62,718 nt of DNA from Promethearchaeota archaeon. Lineage in GTDB: Archaea; Asgardarchaeota; Lokiarchaeia; Sigyniarchaeales; SOKP01. The notes beneath the pieces are model-generated. The model saw only the letters and a program-made list of their open reading frames with translations. It was not told the DNA's origin and made no database searches. Position 1 is the first letter of the stretch. Every line of letters begins with the position of its first letter. Below, one piece after another: positions 10,188-37,064 of this stretch. The stretch is taken from positions 1-62,718 of the forward strand of contig JAHLWP010000023.1 of NCBI GenBank assembly GCA_019057865.1. Reading direction: 5' to 3'. The translations under genes and the position numbers were made by a program.

Positions 10188-10248
10188 CTTCCTAATTAAC
10201 TATTATTATCAGATAAATTTAAAAATTTAATCTATTCTTAATAAATAT

Positions 10249-10674
10249 ATGGAAAGAGAAAAAATTCTTTCAATAATAAAAGGAATTGAGGAGAAGAATT
10301 TAGAATTAGAAAAGTACCTTTCAAATTTAACTATTTTATCTAGAAATGATGTTATTAAAGAAATCTCACAAAACATTATTCAAAATAATGAATTATTACA
10401 AGAAATAGTAAGTAGTAAGGAACAGCTTTTTTCAAGCGGAATTAAAAGACCTACTAGCCCAATCCAACATATAATCGAAGGTTTTCTCTCTAAAATTAAA
10501 AACACTCCCTTTAAAAAGGTTATATATTTAAGAGAGTTTCTTGAGATATTCAAACAAGAAATATCGGAGAAAGATAAAGATGTGATTTTACAATCCTTGA
10601 AAGACGAAAAAAATGAAGAAGAATTAAAAGAGAAAATGATAACTTTAGCTAATACATTTGAATTGAAATTTTAA
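10249..10674 (+). CDS. Hypothetical helical protein
   Basis: 141-aa ATG ORF filling the intergenic space; no recognisable motif. Confidence 0.65.
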   Translation: MEREKILSIIKGIEEKNLELEKYLSNLTILSRNDVIKEISQNIIQNNELLQEIVSSKEQLFSSGIKRPTSPIQHIIEGFLSKIKNTPFKKVIYLREFLEIFKQEISEKDKDVILQSLKDEKNEEELKEKMITLANTFELKF

Positions 10675-10723
10675 AATTAATTCCTTTAACTTATGATTTG
10701 AAAAGTTATATGTATTATTTAAT

Positions 10724-11128
10724 TCAAAGCTCAAATAGCTGAAGTAAAATTAATACTTTTTTAATACCTCGTATCTTTATTTTTCCAGTAAGTACTTTCC
10801 TTATTATTTTCCCCATTGAAACTTCATCGCCTCCTAAGATTTCCAAAAATAAAGGCGTAGAAGTTTGAAATAAGCCATCCCAACCAACAACTTTCTTTTT
10901 TAAATTCTTTTTTGGTTTATTTTCTATGCCCTCAACATGTATTGTGCCTTTATCGATCACAAGCAACGCAGCATATTTTCCATCTTTTGCATTCAAAAGA
11001 ATTTTAACTCCAGTATCCTTAAATCTTTCTTTAAATTTCTCATTTTCATTTAAAGGGTCAACCAACTTCGCTACAGTGGCAGCAAAACCACGTGGTCTTT
11101 TCTTTTTTTCTTCAGTCATACTAATCAA
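10724..11128 (-). CDS. SCP2/sterol-carrier-like lipid-binding protein (probable ATG at 11119)
   Basis: NENEKFKERFKD...KVLTGKIKIRG follows the SCP2-fold pattern. Confidence 0.65.
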   Translation of the reverse strand: MISMTEEKKKRPRGFAATVAKLVDPLNENEKFKERFKDTGVKILLNAKDGKYAALLVIDKGTIHVEGIENKPKKNLKKKVVGWDGLFQTSTPLFLEILGGDEVSMGKIIRKVLTGKIKIRGIKKVLILLQLFEL

Positions 11129-11550: not shown

Positions 11551-11834
11551 TCCAAAAATCACCTTTTTCAATGCTTATGCTTATTAAATTTTACGGTTTA
11601 GTTCATTATTATATTTCAGAGATATTAAAACTATTTAACCCTTATAAATTTAATGAAAATTTAACTTAATGTGCGTCAATAGTATATATAAATTTTTGCA
11701 TTTAATCAATTAATAAGTACAAAAAATCAGTCAATTAAATCATGTCAAAATATCTTATAATTTAATTAGATTTAACTAAAATGAGTAATTAAAAACCTAT
11801 TTAAATTATTACAAATCTTTTTACTTAAGAACTT

Positions 11835-12599
11835 TTGAAATTGGGGATATTTGAAATAAATTCTTCAGAAAAGAATGTTTTAGTAATAGCTCATCGAGGC
11901 GCTTACAGTGATGCTCTCGAAAATAGTATGGAGGGATTTAAAAGAGCTATTGAGTTAAGGGCTGATTATGTTGAACTGGACATTCATAAAACTTTAGATG
12001 GCATCCCTGTTATAATGCATGATACAAATACTATTAGAATGACAGGAAAAAACGGAATTATAAAGAGCATGACTATTAAGGAGTTGAAACAATTAAAATT
12101 ACATAATGGTGAGAAAATCCCTACATTACAAGAAGTCATTCAAGTTGCTAAAGGTAAAATTAAGTTATTATGTGAGTTAAAAGGTAAAGGAACTGCTTTA
12201 AATGTAGTGAAGATATTAAGAGAAAAGGATATGATTGATTCTACTATTATTCAATCCTTTTATGTTGAAGAATTGCTAGAAGTTAAAAATATTGAGCCAA
12301 ATTTTAAATTAGGATTAATTGTCCCAATTACGGAAGAATACTTACCTGAATGGGCTCAAAGGAAAAATATGATTCACGAAGTACTTAGTTTCAAGTTTGA
12401 ATATCTAATTACTCGATTTAAAAATGTTAAGGAGAAATTTATAAATTATTCTCATAAATATGATTTAAAAATACTAGTTTATCCAGTTGATTCTAAAATA
12501 ATTACTAAAAGGTATATCAATATGGGTGTAGATGGATTAATTGTTAATAATATTTCGCAAACTAAAGCTATTCTTAGGCAATTGAAGGATATTTTTTAG
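11835..12599 (+). CDS. Glycerophosphodiester phosphodiesterase
   Basis: IAHRG, ENS, VELDIH, IMHD, IPTLQE, ELK and GVDGLI. Confidence 0.9.
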   Translation: MKLGIFEINSSEKNVLVIAHRGAYSDALENSMEGFKRAIELRADYVELDIHKTLDGIPVIMHDTNTIRMTGKNGIIKSMTIKELKQLKLHNGEKIPTLQEVIQVAKGKIKLLCELKGKGTALNVVKILREKDMIDSTIIQSFYVEELLEVKNIEPNFKLGLIVPITEEYLPEWAQRKNMIHEVLSFKFEYLITRFKNVKEKFINYSHKYDLKILVYPVDSKIITKRYINMGVDGLIVNNISQTKAILRQLKDIF

Positions 12600-20281: not shown

Positions 20282-21655
20282 TTATTTCGATTTCAAAATT
20301 ATTCTTAAAAAGTGAAATCCTCTAGCAAATAAAATTTTCATTAAAGGCAAATCCATTATGTATCTAATGATTCTTAATAACAGATATTTTTTTTTTGGAT
20401 GAAATGTACTTAAATCCTTGTCATAAGAAATTTTTTTAATATAGAAGTTTTTATTAAAAAAGGATAATAAAAGAGAATAAGTCATAATGGCTATTATGTC
20501 CCAAGCTCTTTTTATGTGATCTCTCGGATAATTTAATTTTTCTCCCATCCCCATCCTTAGAATTTCAATGACATGATAAATATCTAATTTACTCCTAGTT
20601 AATTCTCTTGTGGCCCATAATAAATAAATACATCCACCACAATACGACATTAAAGCTTGTGCTCCTGTTTCTTCTGCTTCTTTGAACTTTTTCATTCCTT
20701 CCGAAATAATATCAAATATTATAGAAACATTTTTTACCCAAGATGCTCCAGAACCAAATCCACAACATAATGAATCTTTCCTATTATGCTTCATTTCAAT
20801 GATCTGGCAGCCACATTTCTTTAATATTTCTCTAGGTATCTCCCAATAAGCACCCGGCAAAGCTTTTGAATAACAATTATCATGAATAGTTACCGTCAAA
20901 TTTAACTGATTTTTCAAAATCAATTCTCCAGAATTTATATTATCTAAAAGCCATTGATTGAAATTAATAAAGTTTTGAGTATGATTCACTCCCATTTCCT
21001 TAGGATGGACTTCTTTAAATATATATTCAACAGCATCTAAAGTAGCGAAAATATCTTTTACACCCCAGGAATCAAAATCATTCTTGGTTCTTACAGCAAT
21101 GTTTTGAACGGCATCTAAGTAACCACCTTGGTATAAATATGCACCACCTTCCCATTGGTCAATTCTATCAATGGGATTAAAGTAGTCCAATAATTTGCTT
21201 CCTCCAATTATAAATGGAAATAAATGAGTATAATTGCCAATCAATAATGGTTTATCATTTGGTTTTGGTATATAATGCATCCATTTGTAAATCCAGATTC
21301 TTTCTTGATTTGATAGAAACACATTCAGAAGTTGCCAAATGTTAGATTGCATAGTAGGACATACAAATCGATATAAAGGAGGAGCTCCTCTCTTTTTATA
21401 TAAATCATTCCATCTTTCAAGTATTAACTGGTATGGATTCGCGTGTTGAGGACAATATAAATTACATGAAAAACAAGTAGTACATTTATTTAAAACAAAT
21501 TTAGATTCTTTACCTTCAATTAATCTTTTTATTTCTTCTTTGGCTTCTTCTATGGGTAATTGCAATACAGGGCATTTATGAAGGCATTCTCCACATAGAT
21601 TGCATAAATCTTTCTTGAATCCTGATTTCCTTTTTGTTTCTACCATATCTACCAT
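20282..21655 (-). CDS. Fe-S oxidoreductase, HdrD/GlpC-like (2x[4Fe-4S] plus CCG domains)
   Basis: CNLCGECLHKCP, CTTCFSCNLYCP, HDNCY, LCCGFG and YCGGC. The first CCG domain is degenerate (WEGG in place of CCG). Confidence 0.85.
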   Translation of the reverse strand: MVDMVETKRKSGFKKDLCNLCGECLHKCPVLQLPIEEAKEEIKRLIEGKESKFVLNKCTTCFSCNLYCPQHANPYQLILERWNDLYKKRGAPPLYRFVCPTMQSNIWQLLNVFLSNQERIWIYKWMHYIPKPNDKPLLIGNYTHLFPFIIGGSKLLDYFNPIDRIDQWEGGAYLYQGGYLDAVQNIAVRTKNDFDSWGVKDIFATLDAVEYIFKEVHPKEMGVNHTQNFINFNQWLLDNINSGELILKNQLNLTVTIHDNCYSKALPGAYWEIPREILKKCGCQIIEMKHNRKDSLCCGFGSGASWVKNVSIIFDIISEGMKKFKEAEETGAQALMSYCGGCIYLLWATRELTRSKLDIYHVIEILRMGMGEKLNYPRDHIKRAWDIIAIMTYSLLLSFFNKNFYIKKISYDKDLSTFHPKKKYLLLRIIRYIMDLPLMKILFARGFHFLRIILKSK

Positions 21656-22920
21656 GCATCACCATATTTAGGAGGTAATTCCTTGATTTCTTCTAATTTG
21701 AATGTCTTATTAGAAAGGATCTTAGGAACTTGTTTTTTGATAATTCCCCAGAAGATATGCTTTCCTCTTTTCTTTTTAGCTTTATTAGTTAGAGATGGTT
21801 TTTCTTCTAATGCCATTTGTATTAATTCTATGATATGGTACACCTTAATTTTTCTAAAATATAATTTCTTGTTTGTGTAAAAAACTGCTAAACAACCAGC
21901 ACAATACACACAAATAATGTCAGCTTTTGTCTTTTTAAAATCTTTAAAATTTCTAATCGTTGATGTTCTCATTTTAAATGGTTGATATGCAGACTCAATA
22001 GAAAAACCAGCTCCAATCCCACAACATCGCATATTTTCTCTGCAAGCTTCACTCTCAAAAACCTTAATCCCTATTCTTTCTAAGATTTTTCTAGGAAGAT
22101 CTATATATTCATCTCCAAACATCTTCGAGTAGCATGAATCTTGAATAGTAGCAGTTAAATTCAATTTCTTTTTTACTTGAATTTCTCCATTTTCAAATTT
22201 TTCCCATAAATATTGTAGATATGACTTAATGGATTCAAATTTATAAGTTAAACCATAATGAGGAAGTATGTTTTTAAAAACATTTGTTCCAGCTGTACAT
22301 AATACTAATAGATTTTTAGGTTTCAAAATATTAAACCATTTATCTAATCTCTTTGTAATCTGAAATAAATCATCTTTATATCCTGTCCGGAATAAAGTTT
22401 CTCCACAACAATATTCAAGTCTGCCTCTTATATCTAAATCTTTAAAAAAACTAGTTTGTGTAAGTTCAGCATAGGTAATTATATTACATCCAGGGTATGT
22501 CAGTGTATCACCTTTTAATGGTTTTAGATCAGCCCAACTTTTTACTAACTCTTTTGTTTTTTTCGGTAAATGTTCCATAACATAGGATCGAAAATTTGGA
22601 TAATGAGGATATAATGTCATAAAATATTCTCCTCTTTTTCTTAATCCTTCTTTTTTATATAGTTCATTCCATCGTTGCAGTATCAATTCAGCAGGATGGG
22701 CATTTTCAGGGCAATAAAAATTGCATGAAAAACAACTTTGACAATCGTTTAACACTCTTTTAGTAGGTTCTCCCGCGATCAATCGCTTCATTTCATCAAT
22801 AGACTCTTCAATAGAGAGCCCCATTATTGGACATTTATTAAAACATTCACCGCAAAAAGTGCAAACATCTTTATTAAATGGAGAGAAGAATTCTATGTCG
22901 ATAGGTTCTATTTTAGTCAT
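21649..22920 (-). CDS. Fe-S oxidoreductase, HdrD/GlpC-like (paralogue)
   Basis: CTFCGECFNKCP, CQSCFSCNFYCP, YPGC, YCCGE, QDSCY, RCCG and YCAGC. ATG 22920 avoids overlap with the upstream gene. Confidence 0.85.
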   Translation of the reverse strand: MTKIEPIDIEFFSPFNKDVCTFCGECFNKCPIMGLSIEESIDEMKRLIAGEPTKRVLNDCQSCFSCNFYCPENAHPAELILQRWNELYKKEGLRKRGEYFMTLYPHYPNFRSYVMEHLPKKTKELVKSWADLKPLKGDTLTYPGCNIITYAELTQTSFFKDLDIRGRLEYCCGETLFRTGYKDDLFQITKRLDKWFNILKPKNLLVLCTAGTNVFKNILPHYGLTYKFESIKSYLQYLWEKFENGEIQVKKKLNLTATIQDSCYSKMFGDEYIDLPRKILERIGIKVFESEACRENMRCCGIGAGFSIESAYQPFKMRTSTIRNFKDFKKTKADIICVYCAGCLAVFYTNKKLYFRKIKVYHIIELIQMALEEKPSLTNKAKKKRGKHIFWGIIKKQVPKILSNKTFKLEEIKELPPKYGDAW

Positions 22921-22925
22921 AATTA

Positions 22926-23735
22926 TTAGATAACTCCAGCCATTTGAATTGTAATTAAACACATAAAATATAACATCAAAAAATTTCCAATTAAGATTCC
23001 CACATCTTTTACTCCTTTAGAGGATTTGGTAGGTTTCCTGAAAGTGAACATAGTACCAATTGGCATGAAAATAAATGGAAAGAAATAGTACTGCTCCAAA
23101 ATAATAAATGCCCAAATGGCTAAAATTAATGTAATTGTTGAAATTGTCCAGATTATAATCTGACATTGCCGCAAACTAAAATATCTCGTTAAAGCATCAG
23201 AATCTATTATTTCATGAACGAGTTGACCGGTAATCGCAAATCCTAGAATCGTAAAAATTAAGATCCATTCAGATACTGACATTAGCGATAATTCAGCATC
23301 AATTTTTATCATAAAATATGGAAAAAGGACATGAGAAGCGCCCAATAATATGTGATTTAAAAGAGGAACAGGTTTAAGCCATTTAACATATAAAAGAACC
23401 ATAATGATTATTATACCTAAAAATAGCCCATTAATTGGATATGTTAAACAAGTGCGCAATAATAATGAAATACCAAAAATGAAACAAACAAGCCCAATTG
23501 TAAATATTTCACGTGGATGATATCCTTCCACCCGTTTAAGAGTTTCTTTTTCATTGGGATCCTTCATATCAACAACATCATTCCAGGTATTTCCGGTAAT
23601 TGCTAAAAAGAAAAATCCTATTAAAATATCAAAATGATTAAAAGGGTTTAGATTGTTCAGAAAAATAGCGACCAATAATGGTATCATTACTGAAAAGACA
23701 TAATCTATTCTTAAAAGATCAATCCTTTTAGACAT
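22926..23735 (-). CDS. UbiA-family prenyltransferase
   Basis: Multi-TM protein with NTWNDVVDMKD (NDxxD), Y..WLKP and HEIIDSD as the second acidic motif. Confidence 0.8.
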   Translation of the reverse strand: MSKRIDLLRIDYVFSVMIPLLVAIFLNNLNPFNHFDILIGFFFLAITGNTWNDVVDMKDPNEKETLKRVEGYHPREIFTIGLVCFIFGISLLLRTCLTYPINGLFLGIIIIMVLLYVKWLKPVPLLNHILLGASHVLFPYFMIKIDAELSLMSVSEWILIFTILGFAITGQLVHEIIDSDALTRYFSLRQCQIIIWTISTITLILAIWAFIILEQYYFFPFIFMPIGTMFTFRKPTKSSKGVKDVGILIGNFLMLYFMCLITIQMAGVI

Positions 23736-23813: not shown

Positions 23814-26800
23814 TTATTGTCTCGTACTTTGAATAAATTGTTTTTCCTTTTTTTGCAGTTTTTCCCATCTCTTACGCTCCGATCGCAATTTGAATAAATC
23901 AATGTCTTTAAATATCAAACCTTCTTCTTTTATTGGAAGATTTCTTTCCGTTCGATCTTTTTCAGGAGTATAAATTAGCGAATCACCAAATTCAGCGATA
24001 TTGGCAAAAAAGCAGTATGCGTATATAGATCTTCGCGCGTCAAAATGAGTAGCTTTAAAGTCTGCTGTAACCGGTGTAAAAGCGGGATTTAAAATTATAT
24101 CCACCGCAGGTTCGAAATTTTTTAATTCAACTCTTAGATCCATATCAAGGAAATCTCGGCAAATAATAATTGCGATTCGTCCAAATTCGGTGTTACAGAC
24201 AATTACATTTCGGGGAAGATCTCCTACTCCTATGCCTTCCTTAATTTCTGTTCCTTCAAATCGTATTATAGATGGAATATGTTTCTCTTGTTCCCAAAGG
24301 ATACCATCTGGTCCAAAAACTCTTGCAATATTTCTTTTTGTTTCTTGGTCATGAAATGAACCTGGGATTATGTACATCTCATATAATTTGGCAAGATCAG
24401 AAATATCTTCTAATAATTCACCGTAATTAAGGTCAATTATCATTTCTGGGAAAAGTAAAACATTGACTCCCTCTTTATGTGCCTTTTCAATCATGTTTTT
24501 AACTATTGTTCTTATAATTTCAACTTTATCTTCTCGAAGGCTTAATAGACCTGAAGTTTTCATCTCGTAAAACTCGCTTAAAATATCTCCAGTTTCAGAT
24601 ATACCAATTTGAGCTATACCAACTCTAAATTCTCTTTTTTGGGTTCTGGGGTATTCTTTAAATAAATCTCTATAAATAATTTGATATTTCTTTTTAGTAA
24701 TTTTTTCTCCTATAAATCTCCTCTCTTCTTCAGTGAACTGATACACTTCACCCAACCGAGGTGATTGACTAGTCTCAAGCGAGCAAGCAGGAGCTATTAT
24801 GCCCGTTGTACTACTAGATATTGAAGGTTTTTTAATGGTATTTAGAGCTGAAACTAATATCTTTTCTTCTTGTTCTAATCTTTCCAAGCGGGTCAGTATC
24901 TCCCTTTCTTTATCTTTATAACCAGCTTTACTAAAAAGTTCTGCAGCAGATTTTAGGTAATTAGCCCCAATATCTAAAAGATTTTTTTTATTGCTAATTT
25001 CTAACTCTTCATCCGCTCTTATTAAGTGCCATACTGCATCGAAATAAGTTGAAGTAGCTAACGCCCAATCTCCACCATTCTTAAAACCTCCTTTCTCATA
25101 AGAGGAAGCTGCTGTTCTTAACATTGATTTGATTTTAGGGTATAATTGAGCTTTTACTTCAGAATTATAAGTCTCATCAAATTCACATCCAAGTTCTAAA
25201 GCATGGCAAAAAGAAGAATTTCCTGATGCCAGTAATTTCAACTTGCTATCGGTGAAAAGATTACTAGCTTTTATGAATAAATTAGCCGATTCTGAGAATC
25301 TATCATGATCCTCATATTTTTCAGCAAGTTCCATGCTTTCCCAAGCTTTACATAGATAATATACCGCCTCTAATTCCACTCGTTCTTTTTCAGTTTTAAA
25401 AAGGTTGCAAACATATCTAAACTGTGAAGCTGCTGAAGCAAATAATTCTGCGGCTGTTATATGTTCACCTTGTTTTCCTACGATTCTTGCCTTTTCAATA
25501 TCTATTCTCGCAGAACAATAAGATGTCCTTAATTTGGCTACTTTTATAAGTTTCTCAATTCGTACAATTTCCATTTTTTCTTTAGATTGATTTAGGCGTT
25601 TTTCTAGGATTGTTATTGCATTTTCAAACATTTCTATAGTTACATTATATTTTTCTATAGCCTTTCTGTGTTTTTCTTGTTTGCTAAGTTGTTCTGCTAT
25701 TTCCTGAGACGCCCACGCAGAGTAATAATTCGCTTCATAACTATAACTTGATAGATTTTTTAGAATTTCACATGCATTATTATAGCTCTCCCTAGCTTCT
25801 TGATGACTTTCACTTTTATGATTAACTTTGGCAATTTCAATTAAGTTCCATGCTTTAACATAATTTAGTTTTTCATTAATTCTCTTTATTAATGGTTTAT
25901 ACTCAACTTTTTTTAATGATTCAGTATAAGCATTTTGTGCCATCCCATAATTGTTTGCAGAAACGGTATGGTTACCTAAGCGATCCTCTATACGTGCTAA
26001 GTATTCAAATGTAGCGGCTGTGTATGATTGATACCCTCTGGTTTCACTTTCTTTAGCTACTTGGAGGAATAAATCTTTTGCCTTTTCAAGTATATCATTT
26101 TTTTTAGCTAAAATACCAAATTCTTCATAAAGAAGTCCTAAACGCATTTGAGCTGTAATGATACCCGTTCGAGATTCGATTGAATGCTCCACATACTTCT
26201 CAGAAGCATCTATAGCCGCTGATAACATTTCAATTTTAGTTTCTTCATCCTGAGTAATATCTGCGAGAGTTTTATAAGCTCTATAGAGAGAATTATAGCC
26301 ATAAGCTCGAACCCATCCTCCTTCATATTTCTCTGCAATTTTTTCAATGTGTTTGGCATATTCAAGCATTTTTTGTGCCTTCTCCTCCTGTTCATCTTTT
26401 GAACTAGCGAGAATGGATAATTGTGAATACGACCATGTTAATGCTAAATATGAATCTGAAAAAAAAGGTGAAAACAATATTCCGTCCAAATTCTTTTTTG
26501 CATGTTCAATAGCTTTTTTGGCATATGATTTCCTCTGATCTGAGGTGAAATAGCTCCTTTGAGCCATATTAGCATAATAAACTGCCAATATTAGATTATT
26601 CTGGAATCTCCATAAATTATAAGTATCTTTTAATATTTTTCCAATCTCTATAAACCTTTCAAGGACAATAGAAATAGCCCTCTGAAAATACTTAACTCTA
26701 CCTCCAAGCATAGCCCACCTAAGCAGCCAATATATAGACTCACTTATTAAGGATATATCGTTTATTTTTCTGGCAAGGTCTAAAGATTTTTCTAGTAATC

Positions 26801-27644
26801 TTAATGCATTATCAAGGTATTTTCTTTGTTTATTTTCTTCCTCAATGAAATTAATCGCAAAATAACCATATAAATTGCCAGAAATCATATTCATCATAGA
26901 AATAGCAATTTGATCATCATGTTTCTCAATAAATTTTAAACTTTCATCACATCTCAATAGAAAGTTTTTGAAATATTCTTTCCAATATTCAATCTGTCTA
27001 AATGGTTTTATATAGTTTTGAGCTAAAGTTAAATAGTACTCAGCATAGCATGATTCCGCTAGAGAATGAACATTTTTAACTTTTTTTGAAAGATTTTGAG
27101 CTTTATGGACAATATCTATAGTTTTTTTATAAAAATCTTCGAACTCTTTAGGGTCACTAATAAAAAATCCTTTTGCTATAGAAACATATCCAACACGACT
27201 TAAAATCCTAGAAAGATGCTCTTGGTCGTCCTCCTTAGAATATTCTTCGCTTACTTCAAGGAAAAGTTCGTAGGCTTTAGTGACTTTCTCTATTGCTTCT
27301 TCAATAGAACTTGCAATATGCCCACTGAAATATGTCGCTTCCGCTTTGCATTCCAATTTAATAGGATTATTCCTAATTTGTTCAAAGAAAATCATAGCAT
27401 CTGTATATGCCTTCACTGTTCGTTTGTTATATTCTACAAAATCTACAGCTGTTTTTACGGTAAAAGCTGCTCGAGAATATGAATATCCAAGCTTTCTATA
27501 AGTTTCAGCAGTTTCTTCTAGTAAATGTTTTTTGAAAAACCATCTAACAACTCGTTCGTATAATTTGGCTGCTTCTTTCCAGTTATAAAGTTTTTCTTCA
27601 TGTGTTGCTTTTTCTATTAAATTCTCTACTTCTTCCTCCATCAT
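23814..27644 (-). CDS. Giant TPR/alpha-SNAP-like solenoid protein with C-terminal nitrilase (C-N hydrolase) domain, copy A
   Basis: ~950 aa of amphipathic helical repeats, then RVGIAQ, LLFPEM (Glu), IIPGS, QEKHIP (Lys), GRIAIIICRDF (Cys), NPAF and FANI. Confidence 0.85.
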   Translation of the reverse strand: MMEEEVENLIEKATHEEKLYNWKEAAKLYERVVRWFFKKHLLEETAETYRKLGYSYSRAAFTVKTAVDFVEYNKRTVKAYTDAMIFFEQIRNNPIKLECKAEATYFSGHIASSIEEAIEKVTKAYELFLEVSEEYSKEDDQEHLSRILSRVGYVSIAKGFFISDPKEFEDFYKKTIDIVHKAQNLSKKVKNVHSLAESCYAEYYLTLAQNYIKPFRQIEYWKEYFKNFLLRCDESLKFIEKHDDQIAISMMNMISGNLYGYFAINFIEEENKQRKYLDNALRLLEKSLDLARKINDISLISESIYWLLRWAMLGGRVKYFQRAISIVLERFIEIGKILKDTYNLWRFQNNLILAVYYANMAQRSYFTSDQRKSYAKKAIEHAKKNLDGILFSPFFSDSYLALTWSYSQLSILASSKDEQEEKAQKMLEYAKHIEKIAEKYEGGWVRAYGYNSLYRAYKTLADITQDEETKIEMLSAAIDASEKYVEHSIESRTGIITAQMRLGLLYEEFGILAKKNDILEKAKDLFLQVAKESETRGYQSYTAATFEYLARIEDRLGNHTVSANNYGMAQNAYTESLKKVEYKPLIKRINEKLNYVKAWNLIEIAKVNHKSESHQEARESYNNACEILKNLSSYSYEANYYSAWASQEIAEQLSKQEKHRKAIEKYNVTIEMFENAITILEKRLNQSKEKMEIVRIEKLIKVAKLRTSYCSARIDIEKARIVGKQGEHITAAELFASAASQFRYVCNLFKTEKERVELEAVYYLCKAWESMELAEKYEDHDRFSESANLFIKASNLFTDSKLKLLASGNSSFCHALELGCEFDETYNSEVKAQLYPKIKSMLRTAASSYEKGGFKNGGDWALATSTYFDAVWHLIRADEELEISNKKNLLDIGANYLKSAAELFSKAGYKDKEREILTRLERLEQEEKILVSALNTIKKPSISSSTTGIIAPACSLETSQSPRLGEVYQFTEEERRFIGEKITKKKYQIIYRDLFKEYPRTQKREFRVGIAQIGISETGDILSEFYEMKTSGLLSLREDKVEIIRTIVKNMIEKAHKEGVNVLLFPEMIIDLNYGELLEDISDLAKLYEMYIIPGSFHDQETKRNIARVFGPDGILWEQEKHIPSIIRFEGTEIKEGIGVGDLPRNVIVCNTEFGRIAIIICRDFLDMDLRVELKNFEPAVDIILNPAFTPVTADFKATHFDARRSIYAYCFFANIAEFGDSLIYTPEKDRTERNLPIKEEGLIFKDIDLFKLRSERKRWEKLQKKEKQFIQSTRQ

Positions 27645-27782
27645 TATCGTACTCTTAAACTATTATATATATTTTCCATTTAATAACCTTGGATTCATTA
27701 AGTATATCTAAAGAATGATTAATATTCAAGTTAAATCAATTTATATTTTTTTACTTTTTTGAAGTTATGAAATTAGAATATT

Positions 27783-30700
27783 TTATCTTGTGCTTTGGAT
27801 AAATTGTTTTTCCTTCTTTTGCACTTTTTCCCATTTCTTACGCTCTGAACGCAATTTGAATATATCAACATCTTTATAAATCAAACCCTCTTCTTTAGCA
27901 GGAATCATTCGTTCAGTACGATCTTTTTCAGGAGTGTATATAAGAGATTCTCCAAATTCTGCGACATTAGCGAAGAAACAGTAAGCATAAATAGATCTAC
28001 GGGCATCAAAATGGGCCGCTTTAAAATCAGCTGTGACTGGAGTAAATGCAGGATTAATTAGAATATCAACAGGAGGTTCAAAATTTTTTAATTCCACTCT
28101 CAAATCCATATCAAGGAAATCCCGGCAAATAACTATAGCAATTCTTCCAAACTCAGTATTACATATGGTTGTATTTCTTGGATAGGAACTTGTTTCAATT
28201 GCTTCTTTAACTTTTTTTCCCTCAATATGTATTGTTGCGGGGATATGTTTTTCCTGTTCCCAAAGAATACCTTCCGGACTAATTACTGTACTAATATTTT
28301 TCTTAGATTTTTCATCGTGATAAGACCCCGGAATAATATACATATCATAAATTTTAGCATAGTTCATTAACTCCTCAATGACTTCATTATAATTCAAATC
28401 AATCATCATTTCTGGAAAGATAAGAATGTCAACTCCACTAGAATTAGCCTTCTCAATGATTTCTTTATAGGTTGATCTAAGTGAATTTAATACATTTTCT
28501 TTAATTCCTAATAATCCAAGCTTTTTAATATCAAAAAACTCTTTTAAAATGTCTCCAGATTTAGATAGCCCAATTTGACCAATTCCAATTTTACATGTAT
28601 TTCGTTGGATTTTAGAGTATTGTTTTAGTAAATCATTATATATTAAATTATATTTTCTCGCTTTCTCCATACTATCCGATAATTCACTAGCTTCTACTGT
28701 TAATTGATTGATTTCACTTAATCTTGGTGATAAACTGGATTCTATTGGGCATGCGGGAGCAACAATCCCTGCTGTACTTCTTGAAATCACAGGGTTACTA
28801 ATTGTATTTAAAGCAGAATATAAAATCATTTCTTCTCTTTCTATCCGATGTAATTTTTCATAAATTTCTTCATGTCTTTCTTTATATCCCGATTTTTCAA
28901 ATATATCCGCAGCAGACTTTAGATATTTAGTACCAACTTCTAACTGCTTTTTTCTATTATCAAGTTCTAATTCTTGATCTGCTTTGATTAAATGCCAAAG
29001 TGCATCGAAATAAGATGAAGTTGCTAGAGCCCAATCTGCACCACCATTAAATCCTCCTCTTTCATACGAACTAGATGCTTTTCTTAACATCATTCTTACT
29101 TTTTTATAATAATCTGCTTTTTTCTCAATATCTGTAGAATCATCAAATTTGCAGCCGTTTTCTAACGCTAAACAAACAGAAGAATTACCAGAAGCTAATA
29201 ATTTTAATTTTCTATCAGTGAATAAATCACTTGCTTTTAAAAATAGTTTTGAAGCTTCTAAGAACCTCTCTGGTTCTTGATAATTCTCAGCAAGCTCCAT
29301 CCCTTCCCAAGCTCTACATAAATGATAAATTGCTTCTAATTCCTTTCTCTCTCGTTCAATCTTAAATAAAGTACAAATATCTCTAAATTGAGAGGCCGCT
29401 AAAGCGAAATTCTCAGCAGCAGATAGATGCTCCCCTTTCTTTTGAAGAATTCTGGCTTTCTCAAGGTTAATACGGGCTAAACAGTAATTAATCCTAACAT
29501 TAGCCACTTTTTCTAGTTTTGATATTCTTTCTATCTCAATTTTATTAGAAGACTGAGTTAAAGCTTCTTTTAATACATCTATTGATTTTTCAAAACTTTC
29601 TTTTGTATCTTGATATTTATTAATTGCGTCTTGATGTTCTTCTTTCTTGCTTGCATCTTCTGAAACTTCTAATAATGCCCAAGATGAATAATATGAAGCC
29701 TCATATTGATATTTAGATAGATTTTTCAGGATCTCACAAGCCATATCATATTGTTCTTTTGCTTTCAAATGATCCTCTTTTTTATGGTTAACTTTAGCCT
29801 CTTCAATTAATTTCCAAGCATTATCATATTCAATCTTTTCTTTAACTCTATCTTTTAATGGTTTAAATTGAATTTTTTTTAATGATTTTATATGAGCTTT
29901 ACTTGCCATTTCATATTGTTGAGCAGAAGCTAAATGATTACCCAATCGATCTTCTATTCTTGCTAAATATTCATAAGCAGCAGCAGTATGGTAATAATAA
30001 CCCTTCTCTCCAGTGTCTTTTACTAAATTAAGAAATGATTCTCTTGCCTGAGACAATGGTTCTTTTTGCTTAGTAAGTATAGCAAAATCCTCGTATAACA
30101 ATCCGAGATGCATCCGATCGGCAATGAAATCCCTATACGATTCAATTGAAAATTCAATATGATTTTTGGTTGCATCTATTGCAATTAATAAATTCTTAAT
30201 TTTTTCTTGCTTATTTACTAAAATATCAGATAAAGTCTTATGAGCTCGATATAATGAAATATAACCAGCAGCTCTACTCATTCCTGCTTTATACTTGTTT
30301 CCAGCTTTTTCAGCTGCATGTGCACATTCAAACATATTTTTAATAAGTTTCTCGCGATTCTCTCTTTTGGGAGTTAAAAGTACTAATTGCGAATAGAGAT
30401 TAGTCAAAATCTGATATGATATTGGCAAAAATGGTCCAAAGGTGAGTTTTTTTAGTCCATCTTCTAATTCTTTAATTCCTTTCTTTGCATAAATTCTTCT
30501 TAAATCCGGTTTTAAAAAACTTCTTTGAGTAAAATTTTGATAAGATATTGCTGACAAAAAATTAGTCAAGAAACTCCAAAACGAATATAAATTTTGATAA
30601 ATTTTTCCTTTTTCTTGAATTTCATTAATATCTGCTAATATCCTTTTTTGAAGATCTTGGAATCTTCCTAAAATAGCAAGATGGTAATCCAACCAAAATA

Positions 30701-31628
30701 TAGAATGTATAAGCATTGGTTTAATATTTAATTCTCTAATAATTTCTAAAGATTTCTCGCAAAAATTTATACCTTTATCAGCAAGATCTTTTTGTTCTTT
30801 CTCATCATAAATAAACCTAGCCGCAATTTGGCAATTTATAGAACCCTTAGAATGGTAAATTAAAGCTTTATTGTATTTGTCATCACATTGTTCAACATAC
30901 TTTAAACCTTCATTGCAATTATCAAGGAACTTATTAAGAATCAGTTCCTGTTCACTATTCATCCAAAAAAGTTTATCTGTTCTGGAAAAACTTATCCAAG
31001 TTTTGATGGCATTAATAAAATTGTTTATGAATAAAAAACTTCCTATATATTCTTTATAATCTAATTCATATGATAAATTCCAACCTTGTTCATTTATTTC
31101 AGCACCTTTTTGGCATAATTGCTCAAATTCAACAGGATCGTCACAATATTGTAATAAATAACCTAAAGTAATTGTAGATTGGTTTAAAATCCTCAATAAA
31201 TTGCTTTTATCATTTTTTTTATTATAAATTTCACTAACTTCTATGTATTTTTCAAAAGAATTAAGATAAAATTCTTTACAATATTCAGGAGATATTCCCC
31301 TGTCTGCTTTAACTCTAAATTGTCCTGCTATACACTCTAATTCTTTTACTTTATCATTCATCTCTTTATAAAGCCTTATTGCCTTATCATATGCTTTTAT
31401 GGAATTTTCTATCCATTTTTTATGTTCTTCCTCTGTTTCAGCTGTTAAATTTGCCATTTGGTAAATGTTTCCAATTTTTTCATAAATTTTTGCAATTATT
31501 TTTATATCTTTCTTATCTATTAGAGATTCTAGGACTTGTTTATACAATTTAGCAGCTTCTATTAAATTATAATTCTTTTGCTCTACTTCTGCTTTTACTA
31601 ATAATTCAGCGGGGTCTATTTTTACCAT
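27783..31628 (-). CDS. Giant TPR/alpha-SNAP-like solenoid protein with C-terminal nitrilase domain, copy B
   Basis: Same architecture as copy A: KIGIGQ, LIFPEM, QEKHIP and IVICRDF; a collinear paralogue. Confidence 0.85.
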   Translation of the reverse strand: MVKIDPAELLVKAEVEQKNYNLIEAAKLYKQVLESLIDKKDIKIIAKIYEKIGNIYQMANLTAETEEEHKKWIENSIKAYDKAIRLYKEMNDKVKELECIAGQFRVKADRGISPEYCKEFYLNSFEKYIEVSEIYNKKNDKSNLLRILNQSTITLGYLLQYCDDPVEFEQLCQKGAEINEQGWNLSYELDYKEYIGSFLFINNFINAIKTWISFSRTDKLFWMNSEQELILNKFLDNCNEGLKYVEQCDDKYNKALIYHSKGSINCQIAARFIYDEKEQKDLADKGINFCEKSLEIIRELNIKPMLIHSIFWLDYHLAILGRFQDLQKRILADINEIQEKGKIYQNLYSFWSFLTNFLSAISYQNFTQRSFLKPDLRRIYAKKGIKELEDGLKKLTFGPFLPISYQILTNLYSQLVLLTPKRENREKLIKNMFECAHAAEKAGNKYKAGMSRAAGYISLYRAHKTLSDILVNKQEKIKNLLIAIDATKNHIEFSIESYRDFIADRMHLGLLYEDFAILTKQKEPLSQARESFLNLVKDTGEKGYYYHTAAAYEYLARIEDRLGNHLASAQQYEMASKAHIKSLKKIQFKPLKDRVKEKIEYDNAWKLIEEAKVNHKKEDHLKAKEQYDMACEILKNLSKYQYEASYYSSWALLEVSEDASKKEEHQDAINKYQDTKESFEKSIDVLKEALTQSSNKIEIERISKLEKVANVRINYCLARINLEKARILQKKGEHLSAAENFALAASQFRDICTLFKIERERKELEAIYHLCRAWEGMELAENYQEPERFLEASKLFLKASDLFTDRKLKLLASGNSSVCLALENGCKFDDSTDIEKKADYYKKVRMMLRKASSSYERGGFNGGADWALATSSYFDALWHLIKADQELELDNRKKQLEVGTKYLKSAADIFEKSGYKERHEEIYEKLHRIEREEMILYSALNTISNPVISRSTAGIVAPACPIESSLSPRLSEINQLTVEASELSDSMEKARKYNLIYNDLLKQYSKIQRNTCKIGIGQIGLSKSGDILKEFFDIKKLGLLGIKENVLNSLRSTYKEIIEKANSSGVDILIFPEMMIDLNYNEVIEELMNYAKIYDMYIIPGSYHDEKSKKNISTVISPEGILWEQEKHIPATIHIEGKKVKEAIETSSYPRNTTICNTEFGRIAIVICRDFLDMDLRVELKNFEPPVDILINPAFTPVTADFKAAHFDARRSIYAYCFFANVAEFGESLIYTPEKDRTERMIPAKEEGLIYKDVDIFKLRSERKKWEKVQKKEKQFIQSTR

Positions 31629-31776: not shown

Positions 31777-32583
31777 TCAAAAATACATTCGTATAGCCAA
31801 TCCCATCAATACGATAGCTACAATAAATTGAAGATAGTTACGAGGTATTTTGTTTGAGACCTTAGCTCCAAAAATCGATCCTAAAATGGCACCTATACCA
31901 ATGAAAATTCCAATTAAAAAATTAATTTGACCAAGAAAGCTCTTAACAATGGTGTTATAAATAGCAGTAAAAAAGATTATTGAAGTGGAAATTGCAGTAG
32001 CATTATGAATAGGATATTGTAGCACAATATGTAAGGAAGGTGTGTTAATAATTCCACCACCTATACCAAGTAGATTTGCTGTAAAGCCAGCTAAGATAAA
32101 TAATGGTATAGATTTCATAAGATTAATTTTATAATCGTGTTCTTTAAGAATGAATTCCTTCTCAATTAAATCCTCTGAGTGCCCTTTATTTATAGTATGT
32201 ATTGCTTTATAGACCATATTCAAACCTCCAATAAGTAATAAGGAAGCAAAGATCATTTTTAATAAAGTATTGTTTATCTGAATAATTGAAAATATAATAC
32301 TAGCAGAAATGCTTCCTAAAATAGAAAAAGTTGCAAATAGTAGAGATAATTTTATAGCAGTTCTTTTTTGCTTTAAATAGGATATGAAACCTGCTAAAGA
32401 AGAAATTAAAATTATAAAGGTAGATGTATCTATTGCTTTATTAATGGGGATTAAAAATAGGAGAGTCATAATAGAAACAAAAAAAATACCCCCTCCCACA
32501 CCAGAAATAACAGAAATTGTACCTGTTAAGAAACCGAGAAATATTAATAAAAAAATAATCCCCAGTGATAGTTCCATAAACAA
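31777..32583 (-). CDS. TauE/SafE sulfite exporter family protein
   Basis: Duplicated GVGGG and GIGGG motifs with about 8 TM segments. Confidence 0.88.
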   Translation of the reverse strand: MFMELSLGIIFLLIFLGFLTGTISVISGVGGGIFFVSIMTLLFLIPINKAIDTSTFIILISSLAGFISYLKQKRTAIKLSLLFATFSILGSISASIIFSIIQINNTLLKMIFASLLLIGGLNMVYKAIHTINKGHSEDLIEKEFILKEHDYKINLMKSIPLFILAGFTANLLGIGGGIINTPSLHIVLQYPIHNATAISTSIIFFTAIYNTIVKSFLGQINFLIGIFIGIGAILGSIFGAKVSNKIPRNYLQFIVAIVLMGLAIRMYF

Positions 32584-34529: not shown

Positions 34530-37064
34530 TTAAAAAAGATCATCATCAAGATCTTCATTCCCCTCTGGGAATCTTCCGAATTCTTGCATGAATTGTTGAA
34601 GTAATTCACTCTCTCTTTTTGTGTACATTGGATCTTCATCATAATCAAAATAACAAGCCTTTATATTTGTTTTTAATTGTTCCTCTAATGCTAAACGTAA
34701 ATTAGGAGTTCCTTGTATTAAGATTATCTCTTGATTCTCATTTAAGACTTGAATAGCACCTTCCGTCTCGGGTACTAATAGAACATTGTCAGTAATTAAT
34801 TCTAACCATTTTTGAGGGGGAAGCACTACAGGTGAGATTTCAAAACGTAGATCACATCTTAAACAACGATTAGCCTCTTCCAAGGCTAAATTTTCATCAA
34901 AACCTAGTTCAATTTCATTAAAACTGCTTTGACGTTCTTTTAAAGATAAAAGCGGCATTTGAGAACGCGATTTATCAAAAAAGTTTTCATCACGTCCCAA
35001 GAATGGGTTAGAAACCTCTTTTTCAGTAAATATATCTTCCATTTCGCCATTCCCTCCCAAATACTTATCAATTGAAGTAGCAGCTTTTCGTCCCATCTCA
35101 ATTGCATCAACTACAGAACCGGGGTTTATTACAACTTCACCACCCGCAAAAATTCCAGGGATATTTGTCTCTAAAGTTTCTTCTTTAGTTTGAATCAATC
35201 CTTCTGTAGAGATTTTAATTTTGTTCTCTCCCTCCAAAAGAGATAAATCAGGAATTTGGCCTATAGCCATTATTATCATGTCTGTTTTAATCGATTTAGT
35301 ATTTTTTTCATCAAAAATAGGATTGAATTTGTTATTTTCATCAAATATTGAGTCACAGTGGATAAGTTCTACCTCAGACACTTTACCATCCATATCAGTG
35401 ATTTTTTTTGGTCCCCATGAACAATTAAGTGTTATGCCCTCATCTATTGCTTTTTGAATTTCCCATTCATGAGCAGGCATCTCTTCCCTACATTCTAAGC
35501 AGGTTAATTGGACTTCTCTAACTCCTAATCGTTTAGCTGTTAAAGCTACATCTATTGCTACATTACCTCCCCCGATAACAATAACATTTTCAGTAATCTT
35601 AACTTCTTTACCAAGATTGATTTCTTTCAAAAAGTCAAGACCCCATAGAATATTTGGTAGATTTGAACCTTCTATCTCAAGTTTTTTGGTATTTTGAGCA
35701 CCAATAGCTAAAAATATGGCATCAAAGCCCTGTTCTTTTAAATCATCAAGCGATAAATGTTCTCCTATAAGTTTTTCTGTTTGGATATCAATTCCCGTAC
35801 TTAATATATGATCAAGATCTTTTTGAAGGACAACTCGTGGTAATCGATATTCAGGAATTCCTACTCTCAACATTCCTCCCATATAAGAATTAGTTTCAAA
35901 CACTGTAACAGAATGGCCAATTCTCCTTAAATAATAAGCTGCTGTGAGTCCTGCTGGACCAGAACCAATCACGGCCACTTTTTTCCCCGTTGAAGAGCCA
36001 ATTTTTATTTGTGATTTCCACAATTCAGTATCATGGTCCATTGCAAAACGTTTTAGTGCACAAATAGCAATAGGTTCATTAATTTGGTTTCGACGGCATT
36101 TGATTTCACAATCATGAAAGCAAACTCTTCCAAGAACTGAAGGAAAAGGTGTTTTTTCGCGGACAACTGCCGCTGCTTCAGCATACTTTTTCTCTGCAAT
36201 CAATCGAATATATCGTGGTACATCAATCCCTAATGGGCAAGTATCTCTACAAGGGACAAGCTGTTTTTCACGTTCAGCCCAAAGGATATCTTTATCTGTC
36301 AGTGCTCCTGTTGGGCAAACCTCAACACAAGCACCGCAGAATTTACATCCCGATTCCTTAAGAGTAGGGGCTATGCTCCCAACTATGGTTTCTCCATTAG
36401 AATAAACGAACCCTAAGGCTTCAACACCACGGAGATCTCGACAGACTCTAACACATCTAGTACATCCGATACATAACTCGTAATTCCGGATAAAAAGAGG
36501 TTCATCCTCAATAATCGTACGTCCTCGGGGAATATAACGTGGAGTATCTTCTCGAATTCCAATATTCTCAGCAATTTTTTGTAATTCACATCGTCCTAAG
36601 ATTGGACAACAACGTTCCTCTACAGGAACATTAGGCGAACATGGTTCACGACTACAACCTTCGCGTTGGGCACAAACCAAACAGGCATGTGGATGTGTTG
36701 AAAGTATCTGCATTAACTTCTCACGACGCAGAGCTTGAATTTCCGATGTATTAGTCAAGATTATCATACCCTCTTCGATCATAGTACTACAAGATGTAGA
36801 TAAACCTTCAATCCCTTCTACTTTTACAACGCAAAGTTGGCATCCTTCATGTCCTTGGGATGAAAAAATAGAATTATCATTTTTGATTTGAGTATTCCCT
36901 TGAAAAACAAATTCTATTGGTTTCATTCCTATTAGGGGTGGTAAATCTGGGTGTGCACAAAGACTAGGAATATAAATTCCAGCATTTTTAGATGCTTCTA
37001 AAATAGTAATTCCTTTTTTAGTATCAATTTTAGTCCCGTTAATAGTAATTGATATCGTTTCCAT
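34530..37064 (-). CDS. bzdV: BzdV-like NAD(P)H:ferredoxin oxidoreductase (2Fe-2S/NuoG-like N-terminus, 2x[4Fe-4S], GltD-like FAD domain, C-terminal extra domain)
   Basis: IPSLCAHP, GCQLCVV, CIGCTRCVRVC, CKFCGACVEVCP, PCRDTCP, GRVC, GSGPAG, GIPEYRLP, GGGNVAID and EANRCLRC; last gene of the bzd operon. Confidence 0.72.
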   Translation of the reverse strand: METISITINGTKIDTKKGITILEASKNAGIYIPSLCAHPDLPPLIGMKPIEFVFQGNTQIKNDNSIFSSQGHEGCQLCVVKVEGIEGLSTSCSTMIEEGMIILTNTSEIQALRREKLMQILSTHPHACLVCAQREGCSREPCSPNVPVEERCCPILGRCELQKIAENIGIREDTPRYIPRGRTIIEDEPLFIRNYELCIGCTRCVRVCRDLRGVEALGFVYSNGETIVGSIAPTLKESGCKFCGACVEVCPTGALTDKDILWAEREKQLVPCRDTCPLGIDVPRYIRLIAEKKYAEAAAVVREKTPFPSVLGRVCFHDCEIKCRRNQINEPIAICALKRFAMDHDTELWKSQIKIGSSTGKKVAVIGSGPAGLTAAYYLRRIGHSVTVFETNSYMGGMLRVGIPEYRLPRVVLQKDLDHILSTGIDIQTEKLIGEHLSLDDLKEQGFDAIFLAIGAQNTKKLEIEGSNLPNILWGLDFLKEINLGKEVKITENVIVIGGGNVAIDVALTAKRLGVREVQLTCLECREEMPAHEWEIQKAIDEGITLNCSWGPKKITDMDGKVSEVELIHCDSIFDENNKFNPIFDEKNTKSIKTDMIIMAIGQIPDLSLLEGENKIKISTEGLIQTKEETLETNIPGIFAGGEVVINPGSVVDAIEMGRKAATSIDKYLGGNGEMEDIFTEKEVSNPFLGRDENFFDKSRSQMPLLSLKERQSSFNEIELGFDENLALEEANRCLRCDLRFEISPVVLPPQKWLELITDNVLLVPETEGAIQVLNENQEIILIQGTPNLRLALEEQLKTNIKACYFDYDEDPMYTKRESELLQQFMQEFGRFPEGNEDLDDDLF

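Follow-up and report, generated by a model that had tools for sequence, protein, structure and literature searches.

Nitrilase domains act as toxic effectors in the reverse transcriptase (RT)-based defence system DRT1, in which the nitrilase forms the core of a tetramer and is active solely when assembled (PMC13275509). Conserved C-terminal residues of DRT1 are domain-swapped and lock over the active site of the neighbouring nitrilase, completing it, and class 3 RTs bear either a nitrilase or a phosphohydrolase (PMC13275509). In defence-associated sirtuin 2 (DSR2), a single-chain NADase that is also a tetramer, a solenoid binds a phage tail-tube protein and the enzyme is thereby switched on, according to two reports (PMC11850899, PMC10981675). 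Recent surveys of archaeal defence leave many archaeal genomes without any other known system beyond CRISPR and restriction, and no solenoid–nitrilase family is listed in them (PMC12988326). Here we analyse two adjacent genes coding for giant proteins, P0001 (1276 aa) and P0002 (1281 aa), in a 62,718-nucleotide stretch of a Promethearchaeota archaeon genome (assembly GCA_019057865.1, contig JAHLWP010000023.1), referred to below as the window. Each protein joins a large helical solenoid of tetratricopeptide repeat (TPR) type to a C-terminal nitrilase module. Together with their homologues they constitute a real, apparently undescribed, modular sensor–effector family, whose effector is a cassette exchanged at a fixed junction.

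The two giant genes and their parts

P0001 and P0002 are encoded on the same strand, 138 bp apart, by two open reading frames (ORFs) located at exactly the coordinates given in the initial annotation, which had been made from the sequence alone. That annotation had also attributed to both proteins about 950 aa of TPR-like helical repeats, a shared linker, a C-terminal nitrilase domain with an intact Glu-Lys-Cys triad and the lack of any signal peptide or transmembrane (TM) segment; all of these structural claims stand. The parts of the two genes are listed here with the basis of each assignment in brackets.

27783–31628, minus strand: P0002 gene, TPR-solenoid/nitrilase protein of 1281 aa (ORF, translation, orthologues, ratio of non-synonymous to synonymous substitution rates, dN/dS)
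30279–31628, minus strand: P0002 residues 1–450, variable N-terminal part of the superhelix, presumed specificity region (low conservation, dN/dS, AlphaFold2)
28749–30278, minus strand: P0002 residues 451–960, conserved C-terminal part of the superhelix (pairwise identity 0.55–0.61, dN/dS)
28659–28748, minus strand: P0002 residues 961–990, end of the junction peptide (STAGIVAPACPIESSLSPRLSEI...) and cassette boundary (motif conservation, identity drop)
27786–28658, minus strand: P0002 residues 991–1281, defence-type nitrilase module with the tail ...FIQSTR (PF00795 at 30.8 bits, PADLOC)
23814–27644, minus strand: P0001 gene, TPR-solenoid/nitrilase paralogue of 1276 aa (ORF, translation, 50% identity to P0002)
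24780–27644, minus strand: P0001 residues 1–955, TPR superhelix with a variable N-part and a conserved C-part (sub-threshold Pfam matches, alignment A2, tblastn)
24690–24779, minus strand: P0001 residues 956–985, between the core of the junction peptide (STTGIIAPACSLE, about residues 944–956) and the cassette boundary (sequence comparison)
23817–24689, minus strand: P0001 residues 986–1276, nitrilase module (PF00795 at 26.5 bits, PADLOC RTasNitrilase at 1.3e-9, alignment A1)

The identity between the two proteins, 50% from end to end, amounts in tblastn comparisons to 30% over residues 1–450, 63% over residues 700–960 and 67% over the C-terminal 291 residues that make up the nitrilase. Orthologues of P0002 in metagenome-assembled genomes (MAGs) of Asgard archaea are 67–88% identical to it, and in a tree of the solenoids P0001 belongs to a separate, well-supported clade with orthologues of its own. 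P0001 and P0002 are old paralogues of an accessory family almost confined to Asgard archaea. A dN/dS of 0.17 between P0002 and its 88%-identical orthologue in genome G208 indicates purifying selection and hence genuine coding genes. Neither protein contains a Walker A motif, a TM-like segment or a signal peptide, and a Pfam search of both found no NTPase family, no RT and no CARF domain.

Exchange of effector cassettes

The nitrilase is one of several domains that follow the solenoid. A TIR domain (TIR_2, 6e-15), a calcineurin-like phosphoesterase (Metallophos, 7e-11) or a longin-like domain may take its place, the last assigned solely by eye from its resemblance to the N-terminal domain of the paralogue P0039, which is described below. 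A Hermod-labelled MAG has a tandem array of five genes, and the product of the fifth, P0200, combines the solenoid and linker of the family with a terminal Cys/His zinc finger of RING/B-box-like type. Among 153 retrieved solenoid proteins the C-terminus is a nitrilase in 127, a phosphoesterase in 8, a longin-like domain in 6, a zinc finger in 4–5 and a TIR domain in 2–3.

These replacements have arisen repeatedly. In a tree of 130 solenoid sequences the non-nitrilase forms are scattered, and each has nitrilase forms as its sisters at high support. For the 20 non-nitrilase leaves Fitch parsimony requires 16 changes, close to the mean of 19.7 obtained after shuffling, so that nearly every non-nitrilase form represents a separate event. 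The position of the exchange is equally constrained: sister pairs are 83–97% identical through the solenoid and the junction peptide, and identity then falls to 0–20% within about 10–15 residues. This sharp drop after the peptide indicates that the effector is a cassette exchanged at a fixed junction. The junction peptide itself (about 30 aa, GIxAPxCPxExSxSPRLxE..TEE) is kept in all C-terminal variants and includes the linker noticed in the initial annotation, GI[IV]APAC[SP][LI]E, which proved to be conserved across the whole family. Swapping of the effector, which the annotation had proposed to look for, is thus observed repeatedly and at one junction, with TIR, metallophosphoesterase, RING-like or longin-like domains in the place of the nitrilase.

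Two of the alternative cassettes have affinities with known defence effectors. In PADLOC the TIR cassette matched the bSEFIR, ThsB and TIR-NLR models; that of the phosphoesterase matched the ‘Effector/Endonuclease’ defence model PDLC00736. No NCBIfam family was found for the zinc-finger cassette.

Exchange of C-termini at a conserved motif would also be expected if the giants were weapons resembling polymorphic toxins, with a repeat carrier, a demarcating motif and an exchangeable C-terminal toxin. TIR, phosphoesterase and amidase domains are of kinds also used as toxins, and genome G188 has an orphan nitrilase fragment at a distance of 3 kb from a full-length gene. However, the giants have no signal peptide, TM segment or known trafficking domain, and no secretion-system genes lie nearby. 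No conserved small immunity-like gene follows them either, the next gene being that of a UbiA-family protein or, after the 138-bp spacer, another giant; moreover, RING and longin domains would make no sense as exported toxins. With neither an export signal nor an immunity gene, we reject this explanation as highly improbable.

The nitrilase module

The CN_hydrolase family PF00795 matches both giants at about residues 1048–1259, with 26.5 bits for P0001 and 30.8 bits for P0002 against a curated cut-off of 23.2; the third paralogue of the same genome reaches 41.4 bits and is likewise above it. The catalytic tetrad is E1073/K1127/E1142/C1168 in P0002 and E1067/K1121/E1136/C1162 in P0001. When 19 C-terminal domains are aligned (A1), the corresponding residues E83 (FPEM), K137 (QEKH), E152 (KEA) and C178 (ICRDF) are all invariant, as is the C-terminal tail ending in FIQSTR, at a column identity of 80%. 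A profile search of the PDB aligned the tetrad with the catalytic FPE, RK.H and C.D motifs of Nit (7elf) and Nit2 (2w1v). AlphaFold2 modelling of the domain from the shallow 19-sequence alignment gave a predicted local distance difference test score (pLDDT) of 59, with an order of strands and helices compatible with an alpha-beta-beta-alpha sandwich; this model was not used for any claim about the fold.

By its affinities the module is a defence-type nitrilase. In PADLOC the nitrilase of P0002 matched CARF_nitrilase (5.8e-15), RTasNitrilase (7e-13), RT_UG5-nitrilase (5e-12) and Drt1a (3e-3). The canonical stand-alone CN hydrolases encoded in this genome, two proteins with 141 and 100 bits in Pfam, served as a control and matched nothing in PADLOC. 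The domain stands well apart from curated metabolic families: NCBIfam yields none for it, the PDB entries of Nit and Nit2 are reached at about 1e-4, and no specific similarity to Nta1 or biotinidase was detected. A position within a housekeeping clade, which would have spoken against the initial annotation, is therefore not what was found, as the domain matches defence profiles and fusions to LRR, HEAT or STAND domains occur in its nearest relatives.

The same module also follows quite different N-terminal sequences. Searching 1.8 billion representative proteins with its profile returned 52 matches at E < 1e-30, and the module (63–92% identity) stands C-terminal to the giant solenoid, to canonical or MalT-type TPRs, to Pkinase, to Ras/Roc plus Pkinase, to an Arf-like GTPase, to beta-helix/NosD repeats and to AAA_16. 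The next-closest nitrilase domains (E-values 1e-21 to 1e-9) are fusions as well, with leucine-rich repeats (LRR; 9 of 75), HEAT repeats (6 of 75) or nSTAND3 NTPases (4 of 75). None of the 150 nearest nitrilase relatives scanned is fused to an RT or a CARF domain.

Several further copies of the domain were encountered. A fifth, distant nitrilase domain (27% identical) is encoded in the same genome on contig 54 (locus L014, 203209–203745, minus strand) within a 691-aa frame, and its PADLOC match to RTasNitrilase (4.8e-17) is stronger than that of P0002. In the metagenomic protein P0043 (1090 aa) the module occupies residues 129–419, preceded by a fragment of an AAA_16 ATPase and followed by a C-terminal alpha/beta hydrolase, which is either a further architecture or a fused gene call. 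The orphan fragment of G188 (G188:C1:1551144–1551617, plus strand) covers residues 134–291 of the module at 80% identity in a 203-aa frame; it lies 3 kb upstream of a complete solenoid–nitrilase gene and may be a remnant or a spare cassette.

The TPR solenoid

Pfam matches in the helical part, to TPR_12, SNAP and MIT, are all sub-threshold. An AlphaFold2 model of P0002 residues 1–990, built from a 23-sequence alignment, is an all-helical superhelix of about 37 helices (pLDDT 87.7, predicted TM-score (pTM) 0.79), in which the junction peptide appears as a low-confidence coil. Searched with Foldseek, the model retrieves large TPR scaffolds, namely Ctr9, Ski3/TTC37, IFT-A, Naa15, OGT and IFIT5, each with a probability of 1.0, as well as separase and Ypp1; E-values go down to 1e-8, yet the TM-scores are just 0.2–0.37 and the identity is about 11%. 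A profile search of the PDB with the solenoid found only designed repeat proteins and, as faint matches, the MIT domain of VPS4 and IpaD; no specific homologue was among them. Judged from this model, the solenoid, about 960 aa long, is a generic TPR superhelix without a specific homologue. A faint likeness to the VPS4 MIT domain was seen at P0002 residues 4–72 and P0001 residues 597–633 (PDB profile E-value 0.018, Pfam MIT E-value 0.007). ESCRT-III and VPS4 are present in Asgard archaea, and the likeness may reflect mere generic similarity between three-helix and TPR structures.

Conservation is distributed unevenly along the chain. Family-wide pairwise identity is about 0.28 at residues 100–300, 0.59 at residues 700–960 and 0.72 in the nitrilase, with a peak of 0.91 at residues 1191–1240. 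Residues 1–450 of P0002 are the least conserved (0.27–0.41), and values rise to 0.55–0.61 over residues 451–960. Between P0002 and its G208 orthologue, dN/dS is 0.35 and 0.28 in the first two blocks of 150 codons, 0.08 over residues 751–960 and 0.13 in the nitrilase. Such a fast-evolving N-terminal third is expected of a specificity region, and on this comparison of sequences it probably sets what is bound. Residues of about 700–960 are common to the GTPase–nitrilase paralogue P0039, which aligns from P0002 residue 705, and at least 401 protein clusters (at 90% identity) match the conserved C-part of the solenoid.

Distribution and the genomic slot

Full-length homologues have 1272–1281 aa, and all their named sources are Asgard MAGs (Promethearchaeota: Loki-, Thor-, Hermod-, Odin- and Hod-); one partial protein tagged Bathyarchaeota is the sole homologue with another label. 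The genome studied here contains three giants, two in the window and one on contig 9, in addition to P0039 on contig 54. At E ≤ 1e-30 the nitrilase module was detected in 132 of 400 Asgard genomes, limited to 5 of 33 families and present in 1 to at least 6 copies, and some complete genomes of the same genus are without it. The family is therefore neither single-copy nor uniformly conserved, two properties that the initial annotation had named as arguing against its proposal, but multi-copy, patchy and missing from complete close relatives.

In the window the giants are surrounded by metabolic genes, coding for UbiA, two HdrD-like CCG/Fe-S proteins, a histidine phosphatase, a radical-SAM protein, an alpha/beta hydrolase, TauE and a methyltransferase. 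Two of these are the conserved flanks of a syntenic slot.

22926–23735, minus strand: UbiA-family prenyltransferase, conserved slot flank, outside the system (Pfam; abuts TauE/methyltransferase in giant-free genomes)
31777–32583, minus strand: TauE/SafE-family membrane protein, second conserved slot flank (Pfam 6.5e-42; synteny in loci L005, L009, L019, L040 and L041)

The content of the slot varies. It holds the two giants of the window, a single giant in L009, four nitrilase giants and one zinc-finger giant in L005, and in G208 one nitrilase giant, two unrelated genes and two zinc-finger giants. In two complete relatives nothing lies in the slot, and UbiA abuts TauE (G147) or a block of methyltransferase, 76-aa protein and TauE (G216). 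Since it may hold 0, 1, 2 or 5 giants, these are accessory cargo, neither partners of UbiA and TauE nor an obligate pair. Further members of the family sit singly amid housekeeping genes, and a scan of viral contigs with the nitrilase profile found nothing.

The neighbourhood nevertheless invites the idea of an ordinary metabolic amidase or nitrilase mounted on a scaffold and tied to the UbiA, HdrD-like and radical-SAM neighbours, with an obligate heteromer as a sub-variant. The catalytic tetrad is intact, and strand and neighbourhood are common with metabolic genes in several genomes. However, the changing number and type of giants in the slot speak against a role within an operon and against an obligate pair, the nitrilase is remote from curated metabolic families, and the module is swapped for TIR or RING domains. 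We accordingly give this explanation next to no credence. An operon with the UbiA, HdrD-like and radical-SAM genes was rejected on account of the empty slot of G147 and G216 and the 1–5 genes present elsewhere; the varying content, including the empty slots, also led us to reject an obligate pair of tandem giants.

Some neighbouring genes deserve mention in their own right. The HdrD-like proteins of the window (20282–22962, minus strand) are tandem overlapping paralogues of 457 and 437 aa that both combine a 4Fe-4S dicluster domain with a cysteine-rich CCG domain; the pair is kept beside UbiA in G208 and G216 and absent in L009 and G147. An 844-aa iron–sulfur flavoprotein is encoded at 34530–37064 (minus strand), with 2Fe-2S, NuoG-like 4Fe-4S, ferredoxin, DPD-type Fer4_20 and Pyr_redox_2 domains. 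The two unrelated genes between the nitrilase and zinc-finger giants of G208 (locus L039, G208:C82) code for a 444-aa CylK-like beta-propeller protein (9573–10907, minus strand) and a 296-aa protein with no match (11582–12472, plus strand).

A paralogue in a ubiquitin-like gene cluster

P0039 (871 aa; L020:10151–12766, minus strand; contig 54) carries the nitrilase behind a different N-terminal part, a longin/roadblock-like domain and a P-loop GTPase that replace solenoid residues 1–700. Its cluster (L020, corresponding to contig 54, 74000–92000) contains an 88-aa ubiquitin-like gene, a divergent E2, a ThiF-type E1 and a JAB gene, as well as a Ras/Roc GTPase, a stand-alone longin-GTPase and three polytopic membrane proteins with RING-like tails. 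The N-terminal part of P0039 is 58% identical to the stand-alone longin-GTPase of the cluster, and the zinc-finger cassette of the giants is homologous to the RING tails of its membrane proteins (33% identity, E-value 4e-12). The adjacency of nitrilase and E2 (about 1.8 kb) is repeated in G187 and G188, two closed genomes of the genus, and in L019 a 505-aa GTPase–nitrilase directly precedes JAB–E1–E2.

These observations could be accommodated by an endogenous regulatory or protein-modification scaffold, whose solenoid would recruit proteins of the cell, as OGT, Naa15 and PP5 do with their TPR superhelices, for modification by the cassette within a ubiquitin-like/small-GTPase network, and not in immunity. 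The nitrilase would then be a protein amidase or isopeptidase (an Nta1-like N-terminal Asn/Gln amidase or a biotinidase-like acyl-lysine hydrolase), the RING domain would ubiquitylate, the phosphoesterase dephosphorylate and the longin domain couple to small GTPases. Beyond the position of P0039 among JAB, E1, E2, ubiquitin-like and RING-like genes, the recurrence of that adjacency in G187, G188 and L019, the shared longin-GTPase and the homology of the RING tails, this explanation is favoured by the RING and longin cassettes, by the absence of defence neighbours, by purifying selection and a stable chromosomal slot, and by the fact that the best fold matches of the solenoid include the enzyme-bearing or enzyme-partner TPR scaffolds OGT, Naa15 and separase. 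On the other hand, the giants themselves are not beside ubiquitin genes: none was found among the window neighbours of P0001 and P0002, and the E1/E2/JAB adjacency is limited to the GTPase–nitrilase paralogue. In another Asgard family, two genomes (77% and 86% complete) have the module, and no UQ_con E2 was detectable in them. The absence of the family from complete close relatives shows it to be dispensable; its nitrilase, TIR and phosphoesterase cassettes match defence-effector profiles that the housekeeping nitrilases do not; and specific similarity to Nta1 or biotinidase is missing. Ubiquitin-like E1/E2/JAB cassettes also serve bacterial defence, so that the link to ubiquitin is compatible with immunity. 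We consider an endogenous scaffold, the chief rival of the immune reading, possible but rather unlikely; it and an immune role are not mutually exclusive.

A possible immune role

A role in biological conflict or innate immunity, with ligand-triggered assembly of the effector, is in our opinion the best reading of these data, and we would give it about an even chance. The separable architecture, the exchange of cassettes, the reuse of the nitrilase, the variable N-terminal solenoid and the patchy, copy-variable occurrence in the slot are hallmarks of immune-type systems. Each giant would be a cytoplasmic single-chain protein composed of a TPR superhelix, a junction peptide and an effector cassette. 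A protein, probably foreign, would bind in the solenoid, and its capture would relieve autoinhibition and/or cluster the C-terminal domains, upon which the nitrilase (or TIR) would assemble into an active oligomer. Nitrilases, like TIR domains, are active solely as oligomers. The assembled amidase would then hydrolyse an essential amide-bearing metabolite or a protein amide, and growth would stop. The ligand, the mechanism of activation, the substrate and the antiviral outcome in this scheme are those that we infer.

Several observations weigh against this role. PADLOC detected no defence genes among five neighbour proteins of the window, and neither defence genes nor integrases or other marks of mobile elements stand beside about 10 loci of the family, where the Pfam families of the neighbours are housekeeping ones; at one of these loci an integrase and a Cdc6-like gene lie 3–4 kb off. 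With both surveys of neighbours negative, linkage to defence islands is unsupported. The GTPase–nitrilase paralogue lies within a ubiquitin-like E1/E2/JAB cluster, and the RING-like and longin-like cassettes are signalling rather than toxic modules. The giants contain no NTPase switch, as they have no Walker A motif, and what the nitrilase of DRT1 acts on is not known (PMC13275509). No region of P0002 exceeds a dN/dS of 1 in the comparison with the G208 orthologue, selection being purifying throughout; together with the persistence of paralogue lineages across genera, this indicates an evolution calmer than in a typical arms race. Consequently, the sensor–effector system of defence-like character proposed in the initial annotation is upheld in part: effector swapping, the affinity of the nitrilase to defence types and the accessory nature of the genes agree with it, and the expected linkage to defence genes does not.

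A bolder and rather doubtful version of the immune role would make the giants Asgard-specific antiviral pattern-recognition receptors that dispense with an NTPase, with toxic enzymes as well as the RING ligase and longin modules of the ubiquitin/GTPase cluster as outputs. If it were true, immune sensing in the closest archaeal kin of eukaryotes would already have been wired to ubiquitin/GTPase signalling in a TRIM/IFIT-like manner. Through its RING and longin cassettes and its paralogue in the ubiquitin cluster, the family is connected with eukaryote-like signalling modules of Asgard archaea, and whether its role is in immunity or in endogenous regulation, it bears on the use of such modules before eukaryotes. 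Beyond CRISPR and restriction, the map of archaeal immunity is poor. The clean separation of sensor, junction and effector cassette provides a natural series of chimeras.

Comparison with known systems

Single-chain sensor–effector proteins are already known, and it is the solenoid architecture with a defined cassette junction that is apparently undescribed. Full-text literature searches found no description of such solenoid–effector proteins, in accordance with the initial annotation, which had named no characterised protein of this architecture and called the system a candidate undescribed one.

Likeness to OGT, PP5, Ctr9, Ski3, Naa15 and IFIT is confined to the solenoid fold (Foldseek E-values down to 1e-8); TM-scores of 0.2–0.37 and about 11% identity make it a generic TPR similarity and not orthology. 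PP5 consists of TPRs and a calcineurin-like phosphatase, and the solenoid–phosphoesterase variant of the family shares this domain logic. With polymorphic toxins of the Rhs/CDI type the giants share the recurrent exchange of C-termini at a demarcating motif; unlike them, they are cytoplasmic and lack domains for secretion or trafficking as well as an immunity gene, and some of their cassettes are non-toxic.

The initial annotation had compared the TPR array with the sensors of Avs proteins. As in Avs and other STAND NLR-like proteins, a repeat sensor is combined with interchangeable effectors, and distant relatives of the nitrilase are fused to nSTAND3 NTPases. However, the giants lack an NTPase domain and a Walker A motif, and their effector is C-terminal instead of N-terminal. 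The comparison thus holds for the repeat sensor with swappable effectors and fails for the STAND NTPase, in the absence of which the likeness is merely loose.

DRT1/UG5 RT–nitrilases and CARF–nitrilases, the latter being ancillary proteins of type III CRISPR, are the relatives of the effector, as the nitrilase of the giants matches their profiles (5.8e-15 to 5e-12). For the mechanism, DRT1 is the nearest precedent: the tail that is invariant in the giants has a counterpart in the conserved C-terminal tail that gates the DRT1 nitrilase, and the alternation of nitrilase and phosphohydrolase in class 3 RTs recurs among the solenoid cassettes. In contrast to both systems, the giants have no RT or CARF domain, either in themselves or in their neighbours, and the regulatory part is a TPR superhelix; the match of their nitrilase to the DRT1 structure chain is weak by sequence (E-value 0.009), and the family is Asgard-restricted. 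They offer a defence-type nitrilase free of RT machinery beside TIR and phosphoesterase equivalents, and could thereby inform the question of the DRT1 nitrilase substrate.

Foldseek revealed no specific fold match between the giant solenoid and DSR2, nor was a match in sequence seen, and the order of the parts is reversed, with the effector at the C-terminus and a nitrilase instead of SIR2. In both cases, however, a large alpha-solenoid and an enzymatic effector share one chain that has no STAND NTPase, and DSR2 is the closest architectural analogue of the giants.

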